Counted from the stretch's first letter, positions 4,871 to 49,592 are shown. The stretch is DNA of 49,960 bases from an uncultured Eubacteriales bacterium (GCA_949451655.1 CASTST010000004.1:1-49960); one strand, 5' to 3'. The notes: a model not told the origin generated them from the sequence alone. A program made the numbers and translations.

Positions 4871-5232
4871 CCTCCAAAAGGGAGATTGCGCGCAACAAAA
4901 TCTATGAAAGTCTCCCAGCAAAAGGGAACAGTCTATGAAAGGCTCCCTTGTGCAAAGGGAGCTGTCACAGCCAAGCGTAGCGATTGTGACTGAGGGATTG
5001 TCTATCTATCATTTTGAATAATGTTAAAATCGACAGTCTACCGAAACAATCCCCCCGAGTTTTGCTACGCAAAACTCACCCCCCTTTGCACAAGGGGGGC
5101 TTATTCAATTAGAGGTTGCGCCACACCTCCTTTACTGGGGGGGAGCCTTCTCATGTTTAATGTTGCGAGCAGCAAAGGGCTGTCGGTTAAGCGCAGCGAT
5201 GCCGACTGGGGGATTGTAATACTATCATTTTG
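4871..5232. repeat. Dispersed palindromic repeat cluster R1 (full doublet 4941-5100 plus degenerate half-units)
   Basis: GGCTCCCTTGTGCAAAGGGAGC-hairpin-GAGGGATTGT ... ACAATCCC-hairpin-CCCCTTTGCACAAGGGGG. Confidence 0.9.
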
Positions 5233-5295
5233 CATTTTCTTCAAATTTATCTTATAATAAACACAAACAAACCAATTTCACGAAAGGATACAAAA

Positions 5296-5502
5296 ATGAG
5301 CAAATACGCCCCCTTATGGGAATATATCTCAAAAAATGGCGCTCCCTCTCTCAAATTAACATTTGATGAAATACAGCAAATCACAGGATTCCCGCTGGAC
5401 CATTCCTTCCTGCGTTTCAAAAAAGAGCTGTTGGAATATGGATATCAGGTCGAAAAAATATCTATGAAAAATCAAACTGTCCTTTTCAGCAAAACAGCCT
5501 GA
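5296..5502 (+). CDS. Small conserved hypothetical protein (68 aa)
   Basis: AAAGGA RBS; MSKYAPLWEYI...LKLTFDEIQQITGFPLDHSFL, a pattern I recognise from small Firmicute proteins. Confidence 0.7.
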   Translation: MSKYAPLWEYISKNGAPSLKLTFDEIQQITGFPLDHSFLRFKKELLEYGYQVEKISMKNQTVLFSKTA

Positions 5503-5621
5503 CAGAAGAAAATTTCACCGCACCGCCGTATGGTTGACAAATAGCAGCACGTATGATAAAATATAAAATCAATATCCAATACATAAAGGACCGGGCAACG
5601 CCCGGGTATGGTGACAGACAA

Positions 5622-6672
5622 ATGGCTGGCAGAATCAGAGCGGGAATCGTTGGCGCTACGGGCATGGTAGGACAGCGGTTCATTACCCTGTTGGAAAATC
5701 ATCCTTATTTTGAAGTAACTGCCCTTGCGGCAAGCGCGCGCAGCGCAGGTGCGAAATATACAGATGCAGTGGGCGACAGATGGAAGCTGTCCTGCGAAAT
5801 TCCCGAGTACGCACGGGATATGGTCGTTATGGACGCTGCGGATATCGCGTCTATGAAAGAAAAGGTAGACTTTATCTTCTGTGCCGTAGACATGAAAAAG
5901 GACGCAGTTGTTGCAATGGAAGAAGCATATGCGAAGGCAGAGCTGCCTGTTATCTCCAACAACAGCGCCAATCGGTGGACGCCGGATGTGCCCATGCTGA
6001 TTCCGGAAATCAACGATGCACACGCCGCTGTAATTGCGGATCAGAAAAAGCGGCTGGGTACGCAGCGCGGTTTTATCGCAGTAAAACCCAACTGTTCCAT
6101 CCAAAGCTATGTTCCTATGCTCACGCCCCTGCGTAAGTTCGGCGTGCGTCAGGTAGTCGTCAGCACCTATCAGGCAATCAGCGGTGCCGGGAAAACCTTC
6201 CGTGAAATGCCGGAAATTGTGGATAATGTAATTCCCTATATCGGCGGCGAAGAAGAAAAGAGCGAACGCGAACCTCTGCGGATCTGCAGAAGATACGATT
6301 ATCACCAGCCAGTGTATTCGTGTCCCGGTACTGGACGGTCATATGGCTACAGTATTCGTAAACTTTGAAAACAAGCCTACAAAAGAACAAATCCTTGCAG
6401 AATGGAAGGCATTCAAGGGACTGCCCCAGACTTTGGGTCTGCCCCACGCACCGGAGCAATTTATCACATATTTTGAGGAAGACAACCGCCCCCAGACGCA
6501 CCTGGACAGAGATGTTTGCGGCGGTATGGGCGTCAGCGCCGGCAGACTGCGGGAGGATACACTTTTTGACTGGAAATTTGTAGGACTCTCTCACAATACC
6601 CTTCGGGGAGCTGCAGGCGGCGCACTTCTGTCAGCAGAACTGCTGTATAAATTAGGATATCTGGACGTTTGA
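5622..6672 (+). pseudogene. asd: Aspartate-semialdehyde dehydrogenase, frameshifted by a short deletion near 6285 (real lesion or assembly error)
   Basis: GIVGATGMVGQRF, PNCS and NVIPYIGGEEEK in one frame; SQCIRVPVLDGH and HNTLRGAAGGA in another frame ending at 6672. Confidence 0.85.
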
Positions 6673-6694
6673 TAGGTAGTTGAGGGAAAAAATC

Positions 6695-47137: not shown

Positions 47138-47343
47138 ACTATGTTTCCCTCTTTCTGTTTATTCAAGTTTGCTTTTTTATTTTACACGGGTTTTGCAAGT
47201 TTGTCAATACAAAATTGCAAATTTTACAAAAAATGCAGTTTCCTGTCATCGAAACCGCCCTAAAAAAGTATTCCTTGCAGTCTTTGCCGATTTATGTTAA
47301 AATAATTTTATTGTTTTCTTTACATAAGGAAGGAGTCTATCAA

Positions 47344-48429
47344 ATGTCCGAAGTTTATTTTTCGCCAATGGCGTTTTCCAGATATGAAGCGTCCCAGACG
47401 CTTCCCGAAAAATTCTCCCGCATGCTTGCAGCCTGCGGACTGGGAAAAGCCGTGCAGGGCAAGAAAGTCGCTATAAAAATGCATGTAGGGGACGGCGTTT
47501 CCTATTCCACCATCCCGCCGATCTTTGTGCGCAAGCTGGTACAATTTGTACAGGACAATGGCGGCGAATGTTTCATCACCGATCACTATGTGGCGCACCG
47601 GCGACCACACGAAAGGGGCTATTCCGAAGCAGGGTTGGGCTGTCCCGTACTGGACGACTGCGCCTATTTCGGAAAATATTTTTACACAATTGAAGCAGAC
47701 TATAAAAAGCTGCGGCATGTGGACGTTGCCGGTTTGATTTATGATGCGGATTTCATGATTGATTTCTCTCATGTAAAAGGACACGGCGCATGCGGATACG
47801 GCGGTGCGTGCAAAAATATTGCCATGGGATGTGTAACGGACCGCACCCGGCACGAGCTGCATTCTCTGGAAGGAGGACTTTTGTGGGACGCTGACAAATG
47901 CGTGCACTGCAACAAGTGTCTGGATGCATGCAACCACTATGCCAATCATTTCGGGCAGGACGGTGCATACCATGTAAATTATCACAACTGCACCCTGTGC
48001 CAGCACTGCGCCAAAGTCTGTCCTACAAACGCAATTACATTGGACTCCCACGACTATACAGACTTCCAGACTGGCATGGCGCTGTGCACCAAAGCCGTTT
48101 GCGACACCTTTGCACCGAAAAGTATTTTCTATATCAATGTGCTCACACAAATCACCGCCTTGTGCGACTGCTGGGGCATGACTACACCAGCTCTTGTTCC
48201 GGATATCGGTATTATGTCCAGTTGGGACATGGTTTCTGTTGAACAGGCATCTGTGGACGCAGTCAAGCTGGAAAATCTGATTCCTGAGGGAATCCCGCAA
48301 GGAATGGAGCTAAAACCGGAAGGGCATCTCTTCTACCGGCTTCACGGAAAAGATCCATATGTGCAAATTGAAAAATTAGAAGAAGTCGGACTTGGCACAA
48401 AGGATTATACATTAACGATAATAAAATAG
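47344..48429 (+). CDS. DUF362 domain protein with a 2x[4Fe-4S] ferredoxin insert
   Basis: KMHVG, SHVKGH, GGACKNIAMG, CVHCNKCLDAC, CTLCQHCAKVCP, CDCW; AAGGAG RBS. Confidence 0.85.
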   Translation: MSEVYFSPMAFSRYEASQTLPEKFSRMLAACGLGKAVQGKKVAIKMHVGDGVSYSTIPPIFVRKLVQFVQDNGGECFITDHYVAHRRPHERGYSEAGLGCPVLDDCAYFGKYFYTIEADYKKLRHVDVAGLIYDADFMIDFSHVKGHGACGYGGACKNIAMGCVTDRTRHELHSLEGGLLWDADKCVHCNKCLDACNHYANHFGQDGAYHVNYHNCTLCQHCAKVCPTNAITLDSHDYTDFQTGMALCTKAVCDTFAPKSIFYINVLTQITALCDCWGMTTPALVPDIGIMSSWDMVSVEQASVDAVKLENLIPEGIPQGMELKPEGHLFYRLHGKDPYVQIEKLEEVGLGTKDYTLTIIK

Positions 48430-48483
48430 ACACTGGTACATTTTTATCATAATATAATAAAAAAATTTCACCAAGAGGCGCAT

Positions 48484-49239
48484 ATGACGAGCAATCTGGA
48501 AATACTATATACAAAGCGGATCAATACGATCTTTTTTGATTTGGATGCAACCCTGGTTCCCTATGTACAGGCTGAACTGACAGACGCATATTTCGGCGAT
48601 CTGCACAAGTTTGCTGCGAAAAAGCTGGGCAGCGACGCAGCAGTACGGTTCGATGACGCGGCTATGAAGGGCTTTCGCGCAATGAAGCAAAATGACGGAA
48701 GCATGCAGAATATCCAGTTGTTTCGCAGTGTGTTTTATCAGGAGTGGCAGGACTTCCCTTTTGATGTAGAAGCCTTTTATGAGGAATTTTACAACGGTCC
48801 TTTCGACGCGGTAAAGCGGGTTCTCCACTATCGCGGCAGTGAAAAAAGCCTTCTGCATAGTCTGCGTGAAAAAGGATACAAGCTGGTGTGCGCCACAAAT
48901 CCGGTATTTCCCCTGTCCGCCAATCGCCGGCGTATGTCCTGGGCAGGAATTGCGCCTGAGGACTTCGACTATATCACCAATTCCGACAATTGTCATTATT
49001 GCAAACCGTCAGCCGGCTATTTCAAAGAAGCGGCCGCGGCAGTGGATTCATCGCCCGAACTATGTCTGATGGTTGGCAATGATACAGTGGACGATATGGG
49101 AGCTTTGGACGCAGGCATGCAGGTGATCCTGATAACCGACTATCTGCATATGCGGGGTGAGCGATCATTGGATCAGGCAGGAACAATGGACTTTGCATCT
49201 TTTTTACAGTTCGCACAGATGCTGCCGGCAGTGGATTGA
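48484..49239 (+). CDS. HAD-superfamily hydrolase
   Basis: FFDLDATL, ATNPVFP, CKP, MVGNDTVDD. Confidence 0.85.
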   Translation: MTSNLEILYTKRINTIFFDLDATLVPYVQAELTDAYFGDLHKFAAKKLGSDAAVRFDDAAMKGFRAMKQNDGSMQNIQLFRSVFYQEWQDFPFDVEAFYEEFYNGPFDAVKRVLHYRGSEKSLLHSLREKGYKLVCATNPVFPLSANRRRMSWAGIAPEDFDYITNSDNCHYCKPSAGYFKEAAAAVDSSPELCLMVGNDTVDDMGALDAGMQVILITDYLHMRGERSLDQAGTMDFASFLQFAQMLPAVD

Positions 49240-49314
49240 CAAAAAATCAAAAAAATCAGAAAAAGATCCGAGAGGGTCTTTTTCTTTTTTTATATGAAAA
49301 TGCACCGCTGTAAA

Positions 49315-49592
49315 AGGCCCCCCGGTAAAGGGAACTCTCGCAAAGCACAAATTCAAAAAAAGGCTCCCATGTGAGGATTCACTACGTGGCTCCATAGGGA
49401 GCTCCCGCAAAGCGGGTGAGGGATTGTAAAACTATCATTTTAAATTCTCTTATAAATCGACCGTCCATACAAACAATCCCCCCATCACGGCAAAGCCGTG
49501 ATTTTCCCCCCTTTGCACAAGGGGGGCTTAACCACGCTACAGGACACGACAGCTCTCTATGGAGCCGCGAAGCGGATTCACAAAGGAGCCTT
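49315..49592. repeat. Palindromic repeat cluster R10
   Basis: GGCTCCC..GGGAGC-CCCGCAAAGCGGG-TGAGGGATTGT..ACAATCCC-ATCACGGCAAAGCCGTGAT-CCCCTTTGCACAAGGGGG. Confidence 0.88.

Follow-up and report, generated by a model that had tools for sequence, protein, structure and literature searches.

Intergenic repeats of the BoxC/PIT/TMECO class have been known as triplex repeats since the 1990s, and Holder et al. 2015 (PMC4666352) assign them neither a function nor a mobilising enzyme and report that no mobility gene was found near TMECO sites. The repetitive extragenic palindromes (REP) of the REP/REPIN-RAYT system and the related BIME-1 elements combine two types of palindrome in inverted doublets with a constant linker between them, in hundreds of intergenic copies and with one repeat-flanked enzyme gene as candidate partner (PMC3733652), and the Caulobacter CIR repeats are likewise intergenic and built of two inverted arms and a linker, their mobility mechanism being given as not known in a review (PMC2229807, PMC3184786). 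Here we describe a repeat family in a 49,960-nt stretch of DNA (the window) from an uncultured Eubacteriales bacterium (GCA_949451655.1 CASTST010000004.1:1-49960) and in the genome to which it belongs. It is an ordinary-looking family, a variant of the BoxC class, with a candidate enzyme, the product of a DUF559 gene, and an unexpected mode of change, in that shared sites are mostly rewritten in place between close relatives. The explanation we favour, and to which we give about an even chance, is that doublets of these repeats owe their maintenance to the DUF559 protein, which would cut the repeat arms in trans, and to subsequent recombination, which would rewrite, flip or collapse a doublet in place with a preference for nearby donors. 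The features that suggest it, all read from sequence, are the anatomy of the arms, covariation within them, an arm-gene-arm cassette, a gene under purifying selection, the pattern at shared sites and the similarity of nearby copies.

The source genome (G000; 2.44 Mb in 251 contigs, 88.9% complete), near-identical DNA to which is present in rat gut metagenome runs, was compared with related genomes, all of which are fragmented draft assemblies. A structural scan of G000 found 548 arms and 173 doublets; run on the reversed genome sequence as a control, it found 3 arms. In G000, GAGGGATTGT occurs 402 times where a 4th-order Markov model predicts 6.4. The arms lie in 423 clusters, which take up 60.5 kb in all, or 2.5% of the genome, and occur roughly once every 5.8 kb, close to the one locus per 5 kb that an initial annotation of the window had given. 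Its description of the copies as essentially intergenic also extends to the whole genome, since 28 of the 548 anchors fall well inside crude open reading frames (ORFs) of at least 150 amino acids, compared with 2053 of 3000 positions drawn at random. At gathering threshold, the repeat is matched by no Rfam family.

Read inward, an arm consists of a pyrimidine tract, a loop (mostly GTGCA or GTGTA), a complementary purine tract, a second hairpin, a GAGGG or GGGGG tract and ATTGT. The second hairpin is variable (278 distinct linkers among 494, of which 408 have a stem of at least 4 bp), and the last tract mirrors the purine tract, which is the layout of a purine-motif intrastrand triplex with the hairpin as its second loop. 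The initial annotation, which had described the unit as two successive hairpins and a further sequence, missed the mirror (triplex) relation as well as the polarity of two arm types, A (GGGAGG-TG..GGAGGG) and B (GGGAGC-T..TGAGGG). In the 421 arms whose first stem is perfectly paired over 6 bp, purine-tract position 4 and the matching position of the third tract read A/A in 295, G/G in 96, G/A in 27, A/G in 2 and A/T in 1; the two positions are concordant in 391 of 420 A/G cases (A-type arms 183 of 193, B-type arms 208 of 227), and the terminal position is C/T in 217 and G/G in 188 (405 of 421 arms). On inspection by eye, a Watson-Crick alternative for the third tract of B-type arms would reach only about 3 bp, and 16 distinct hairpin-2 sequences were seen with both the A/A and the G/G versions. 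Each arm is predicted to fold, as single-stranded DNA, into a hairpin and a triple helix. Because the copies are related, the covariation counts overstate the number of independent events.

The family shares with BoxC/PIT/TMECO the pyrimidine-purine-mirror-purine layout, the intergenic placement and the inverted A+B pairing, which is seen in 5 of 5 pairs in E. coli (PMC4666352) and in 116 of the 142 well-oriented doublets here. It differs in its stems of 6-8 nt and a second loop formed by a 15-30-nt hairpin, whereas TMECO has 9-nt stems and a 3-nt loop, in its roughly 550 arms compared with the 23 given in that paper, and in its conserved 45-nt centre. The TMECO consensus has no match in G000, even with up to 2 mismatches, and the search of Holder et al. 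allowed loops of at most 6 nt (PMC4666352) and would therefore miss the present arms. In organisation the family resembles REP/REPIN-RAYT elements, being made of short palindromes in inverted doublets with many intergenic copies. Unlike in those elements, the arms bear a third mirror tract, the candidate partner has a predicted Vsr-type fold and in-place rewriting dominates between close relatives. The REPIN-like label of the initial annotation does not hold in the strict sense, as a GTAG tag precedes only 4 of 548 arms and a CGTC tag only 2, and no HUH/Y1 transposase was found; specifically, there was no PF01797 (Y1/RAYT) match in the 88.9% complete genome. Failing the TMECO consensus and having neither REPIN tag nor RAYT, the family is not filed as a member of either group, and the Caulobacter CIR repeats resemble it in organisation, with two linker-joined inverted arms in intergenic DNA (PMC2229807, PMC3184786).

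The centre between paired arms is 44-45 nt long in 126 of the 173 doublets, as the initial annotation had described (inverted doublets around a centre of about 40-45 bp), and the B arm stands on the CTATCATTTT side in 102 of the A+B pairs. Two boxes, CTATCATTTT and AAATCGRCAG, are spaced exactly 11 nt apart in 120 of the 131 centres that have both; the first had been noticed previously, the second had not. Minimum-energy folding, restricted to Watson-Crick pairs, gives a long stem across the doublet, but the two arms show no positive covariation (third tract 65 concordant and 62 discordant, hairpin 1 50 and 78), so that this predicted stem is not what is conserved; a whole-element RNA or cruciform stem was rejected on the same ground and for want of an Rfam match. 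A promoter in the centre has a weak signal and was not adopted: of 159 centres, 22 match the strict pattern toward the B side and 4 in the opposite direction, compared with 7.4 in shuffles, and a loose pattern gives no excess. Inverted duplication of the local flanks was rejected as a general feature, with only 4 of 165 above the 99th percentile of the control and a genuine duplication at a few sites only.

Some properties of the doublets would suit domesticated host elements, that is, two-way terminators, RNA stabilisers or protein-binding sites as in BIME-1 (which contains an integration host factor site), held by selection and with turnover as a side effect. Outward of hairpin 1, 159 of 237 B arms have at least 5 T within 9 nt, as do 76 of 252 A arms, and a terminator scan detects hairpin 1, which with its T run probably doubles as a host terminator; doublets occupy 39 of 292 convergent gaps, compared with 57 of 934 tandem and 18 of 242 divergent ones; and the fixed 11-nt spacing of the boxes points the same way. 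Domestication accounts for retention and not for the mirror third tract, the link to the DUF559 cassette or the rewriting, and the arms of a doublet do not covary. Moreover, sites are lost in relatives, and in G002 and G028 the same arms enclose different and much shorter centres, from a few nt up to about 20, at the counterparts of the 17.4- and 42.1-kb loci of the window (L133, L136, L138), where location is kept and content is lineage-specific. As a full account we consider domestication highly improbable; as a secondary role it is compatible with maintenance through DUF559.

We know of no substrate for DUF559 proteins. G000 has one DUF559 gene, intact, at C144:3518-3892, whose product scores 98 bits on Pfam PF04480, above the cut-off, and keeps the residues D51, E62, D64 and H68 that are invariant among 76 sequences. 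A structure model built from the alignment (predicted local distance difference test score 86.6) matches 3HRL, 1CW0 and I-Bth0305I, a Vsr-like EDxHD homing endonuclease, with an E value of 1.6e-4 and template modelling scores of 0.68/0.81 against 3R3P, suggesting a Vsr-type PD-(D/E)XK fold and a putative nuclease. The ratio of nonsynonymous to synonymous divergence between G000 and G031 (dN/dS 0.013/0.187 over 113 codons) indicates purifying selection on the gene. Compared with I-Bth0305I (PMC3239194) and the VSR-DUF559 group (PMC3424549), the present protein is a 120-amino-acid catalytic domain without the N-terminal DNA-binding region, encoded outside introns, and it is proposed to read a folded DNA arm, not a duplex target.

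The initial annotation had likened the layout to BoxC-type repeats near DUF559 genes. Among the best 80 of 404 DUF559 matches in genome contigs, the closest genes occupy the place of the 45-bp centre between the same two arms. Arms of this family lie on both sides in 63 of the 80, on one side in 10 and on neither in 7, with an A arm upstream and a B arm downstream in 57. A generic detector found inward-facing arms on both sides of 57 of the 80 loci versus 2 of 141 and 1 of 123 other ORF ends at those loci. An anchor stands upstream in 72 loci, and in 56 of these the distance from its start to the ATG is 11 nt, which puts the third tract (GGAGGG in the A arm) at the position of a ribosome-binding site. 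More distant DUF559 genes have other arm sequences of the same build, with triplex-type arms near 23 of 30, 6 of 13 and 64 of 81 genes compared with 6 of 419 control windows, and in E. coli a repeat of TMECO pattern lies about 165-200 bp downstream of ycjD, itself a DUF559 gene. In a quick tree (112 of 183 distinct proteins, thinned at 85%) the present arm family accompanies 26 of the 32 rows of one branch (Shimodaira-Hasegawa-like approximate likelihood ratio test 93), and the DUF559 proteins of G000, G002 and G028 group together (96). The doublets are gene-less, the same arms bracket DUF559 in relatives, and the reading of the repeats as non-autonomous is supported. The other enzymes that the initial annotation had proposed as flanking genes did not qualify: RAYT/Y1 was not found in G000, GIY-YIG gave one match within a 615-amino-acid frame and no small stand-alone gene, and the single Vsr gene lies next to a putative cytosine methylase on a contig without arms.

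Some further observations concern the DUF559 locus and its relatives. Beside the G000 gene (C144; L001 1905-2096 and 2606-2806) are two paralogous proteins of 63-66 amino acids, presumably ribbon-helix-helix-like, with a weak HicB match only and further copies in G031, G021 and G028; they were rejected as centre binders, as their own upstream regions score nothing on a centre matrix, armless sites for that matrix number just 14 versus 2 in the control, and their distribution is unlike that of the centre type (one in G028, none found in G015). A DUF559 gene of this clade with the same arms (L039) occurs in a genome labelled Bacteroidota by a tree tool, either through horizontal transfer or through a binning error. 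The DUF559 query matched no relative in viral contigs, and a single contig from an RNA library overlaps a portion of a related DUF559 gene, from which it differs at 15 positions, a match that does not demonstrate expression.

How the copies change can be followed best in G031, whose flanks are 90.7% identical to G000 and for which the comparison covers 1.29 Mb out of about 2.1 Mb. Among 153 clusters with usable flanks, 76 sites are collinear: 43 have a doublet in the same orientation, 18 a reversed doublet, 6 a single arm, 6 hairpin 1 only and 3 are empty, so that a doublet is kept at 61 of 76 sites. Several of the sites without a doublet retain one solo hairpin 1. At sites with one-to-one centres, 29 of 47 fall below an identity of 0.77 (the 95th percentile of random copies), namely 15 of 30 in the same and 14 of 17 in the reversed orientation, compared with 8% of 529 repeat-free intergenic windows, a baseline that includes selected promoter DNA; a rough hand estimate of the baseline from synonymous divergence is about 12%, versus 62% of centres. 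The centre and each of the two arms are retained or replaced independently of one another, and there are three clean whole-element inversions with centre identity of 0.95-1.0, two with breakpoints in hairpin-1 copies and a third mapped less sharply. Crossovers in the middle of hairpin 1 that leave hybrid stems were rejected, with just 13 of 387. The G031 counterpart (L189) of a G000 doublet near position 8988 of C12 carries some 2 kb of additional coding DNA.

In G021 (67% complete; 273 kb and 13 sites compared) same and reversed orientations stand at 5:5, and in G015 (67% complete; 389 kb, 42 sites, flank identity 86%) at 10:10, with 10 sites empty, 10 hairpin-only and 2 single-arm, and with 15 of 16 centres at or below 0.78 identity. 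Centres at least 85% identical are found in 12 of 220 pairs 0.6-15 kb apart, where 1.2 are expected (p=0.0005), in 10 of 267 pairs at 15-80 kb and in 49 of 14031 pairs between contigs; the 17.4- and 18.8-kb copies of the window, 1.4 kb apart and 94% identical over 142 nt, exemplify this similarity of neighbours. These comparisons show that presence and absence vary between relatives. Spread in trans to new sites, which the initial annotation had inferred, is by contrast not the main process between close relatives, as an element occupies just 1 of 140 repeat-free gaps in G031 and the shared sites carry different or reversed copies.

Could such replacements and inversions be short-read mis-assemblies at repeats? 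The draft state of all the genomes would allow it, 121 of the 173 doublets contain a 45-mer, and 53 a 55-mer, that recurs elsewhere, and 34 of 502 contig ends fall at an arm. Only 7 of 173 doublets share a 77-mer elsewhere, however, and contigs from an independent run match G000 at the 37.4-kb doublet and at the DUF559 locus, a check that covers the G000 assembly. Because of the rarity of shared 77-mers and the agreement of the independent run where its contigs bridge, we regard mis-assembly as the least likely of the explanations considered, with next to no weight; the share of reversed copies also argues against it, since it increases with divergence, from 18 of 61 where the flanks are 91% identical to 10 of 20 where they are 86% identical.

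The same data bear on a classical non-autonomous transposon, REPIN- or MITE-like (MITE, miniature inverted-repeat transposable element), inserting at new sites in trans as the initial annotation had supposed. The 20 of 42 sites in G015 that are empty or hairpin-only would agree with this, as would the many neighbourhoods of DUF559 cassettes (62 downstream groups among 72 loci), and reversed copies at the same site could also arise if an element re-inserted, either way round, into a solo palindromic hairpin 1. Unlike MITEs, however, the doublets show no target-site duplication (43 clean doublets, with a length distribution as in shuffled pairing), and the missing GTAG/CGTC tag and Y1 transposase, the near-absence of filled gaps in G031, the independent replacement of arms and centre and the bias of donors toward nearby copies all count against transposition, which we judge improbable as the general process and which may account for the rare seeding of new sites. 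Rewriting in place, nearby similarity and the lack of target-site duplications are better fitted by nicking and recombination than by REPIN/MITE transposition.

Under maintenance by DUF559, an arm in single-stranded form would fold into its hairpin and triplex, and the DUF559 protein, made from its single gene, would act as the trigger by nicking the folded arm. The free end would then invade another hairpin 1: invasion of the opposite arm would give inversion, invasion of a tandem partner would give duplication or collapse to a solo hairpin, and invasion of a nearby locus would give replacement. Cutting followed by recombination is a known mode of spread in the I-Bth0305I homing endonuclease family (PMC3239194). 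More tentatively still, though we consider it possible, DUF559 would be a structure-specific nuclease reading the triplex arm in a homing-like selfish system without a transposase, in which an immobile gene overwrites and flips hundreds of repeats and so drives their concerted evolution.

Several observations weigh against this explanation. Covariation among copies is in part common descent, and across families the mirror relation fits better in 36 of 80 combinations, the direct one in 13, with 31 ties. For TMECO, no stable triplex is reported in double-stranded DNA or in footprinting in vivo (PMC4666352). The assembled contigs in which ongoing flips were looked for break at the repeats. The G000 DUF559 gene itself lacks tight arms, having a solo hairpin upstream and a decayed arm downstream, and the 80 loci are not independent, 29 of 72 sharing an upstream neighbourhood. 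The co-occurrence of arms and DUF559 across genomes is loose: in a comparison of 61 genomes, arm counts were 501 in G028, 396 in G000, 339 in G031, 280 in G021, 184 in G002 and 103 in G015, and 4 of these 6 high-copy genomes carry the closest DUF559 proteins, while no DUF559 gene was found in G021 or G015, both just 67% complete, nor in G026 (91% complete), which has 44 arms. Conversely, G007 and G058 have close, arm-flanked DUF559 genes (67-68% identical), yet only 3 and 2 arms.

The main rival draws on this distribution. In it, arms stall replication forks or fold on themselves, host recombination and slippage do the rewriting, and DUF559 marks the origin of the arms with no present role. 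It would explain the arms in G026, G009, G017 and G035, where no DUF559 was found, and the unexpanded arm-flanked cassettes of G007 and G058; tandem duplications, and inversion breakpoints that fall in homologous hairpin-1 copies, require no special enzyme, and TMECO sites in E. coli show raised local variability (PMC4666352). Against it, the shared homology is short (77-mers in 7 of 173 doublets), yet about 60% of centres are replaced at 9% flank divergence; the DUF559 gene is under purifying selection; and the closest DUF559 proteins occur in 4 of the 6 high-copy genomes. Turnover by the host alone seems to us unlikely, if less so than transposition.

With about 550 arms in one genome, three-strand covariation becomes directly visible and close relatives reveal how copies change, and the question reduces to one protein of 120 amino acids and one 55-nt oligonucleotide, E. 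coli K-12 carrying a ycjD/BoxC pair of its own. If DUF559 proteins do read the triplex arm in a homing-like system, BoxC/PIT/TMECO repeats would gain the enzyme and mechanism they have lacked, and a bacterial DNA triplex would have a biological role. Maintenance by DUF559, if correct, would constitute a route of repeat maintenance separate from RAYT and DDE transposition and would be a source of local rearrangement across 2.5% of G000. No paper linking DUF559 or ycjD to such repeats was found in a search that left most subscription literature outside.

In the window itself all ten loci of the initial annotation were recovered, as nine inverted doublets at eight loci and two single-arm loci, with 12 anchors (G[AG][AG]GG[AG]TTGT, at most one mismatch) on the plus and 9 on the minus strand (Table 1). 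None of 43 scanned ORFs matches a Pfam transposase or nuclease family, which bears out the earlier remark that no mobilising gene is present there.

Table 1. Repeat loci in the 49,960-nt window and the state of the corresponding sites in related genomes.
Feature	Position	Strand	Parts	Corresponding site in relatives
4.9-kb cluster	4910-5244		partial hairpin 1 4910-4929; outward hairpin 1 5126-5146	
4.9-kb doublet	4942-5100		B-type left arm 4942-5001; centre 5002-5045; A-type right arm 5046-5100	
4.9-kb extra arm with half centre	5170-5244			
12.8-kb cluster	12760-12997		terminator-like hairpin-1 remnant 12760-12778; extra degenerate arm 12936-12997	
12.8-kb doublet, left arm degenerate			anchors 12816-12825 and 12868-12877; right hairpin 1 12892-12913	found in G021; missing from G031 and G002
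17.4-kb doublet	17391-17569		left arm 17417-17469; centre 17470-17511; right arm 17512-17569	centre shared with G031; different reversed copy in G021; short-centre relatives in G028; none in G015
18.8-kb locus	18734-18970		solo hairpin 1 18734-18756; doublet 18819-18970	different, reversed copy in G021; no doublet in G031, G015, G002, G028
24.0-kb single arm	23986-24053	+		another arm variant in G031; none in G015
32.5-kb locus	32447-32793		doublet 32490-32640, centre 32546-32587; with inverted duplication of local outer flank (32447-32498 / 32742-32793)	A and B arm types swapped sides in G031
35.8-kb single-arm locus	35820-36021	+	tandem hairpin-1 units, 100-nt period; terminal full arm 35968-36021; upstream of L10 leader promoter	nothing in G015 or G002
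37.4-kb locus	37360-37645		three decayed tandem hairpin-1 units (41-46-nt period); doublet 37493-37645, bridged with its right flank by one near-identical contig from the independent run	mere remnant in G031; none in G015
42.1-kb locus	42099-42830		doublets 42142-42285 and 42606-42746; 50-nt tandem outer units 42284-42478	in G031 the doublets have traded left arms
49.3-kb locus	49316-49590		doublet anchors 49418-49427 and 49473-49482; right hairpin 1 49505-49527; outer remnants	orientation kept in G031; different copies, reversed, in G021 and G015; absent from G002

Directly after the 4.9-kb cluster lies a 68-amino-acid ORF (5296-5502) with no Pfam match, and G015 is without the whole stretch of about 4858-5519, cluster and ORF being missing together. 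An asd-like semialdehyde dehydrogenase gene is split into two frames (5553-6368 and 6343-6672), with its Pfam C-terminal domain divided, through either a frameshift or an assembly error. Positions 11264-11553 hold a second, different array, in which blocks of the ATTATACCAT type alternate with variable hairpins and inside which the arm scan found no arm; it lies upstream of a gene (11660-12751) for a 363-amino-acid protein with cohesin and dockerin domains. Just before the 42.1-kb cluster, at 41619-42089, stand two tandem small genes of the Cro/C1 helix-turn-helix type, the number of which differs among relatives.

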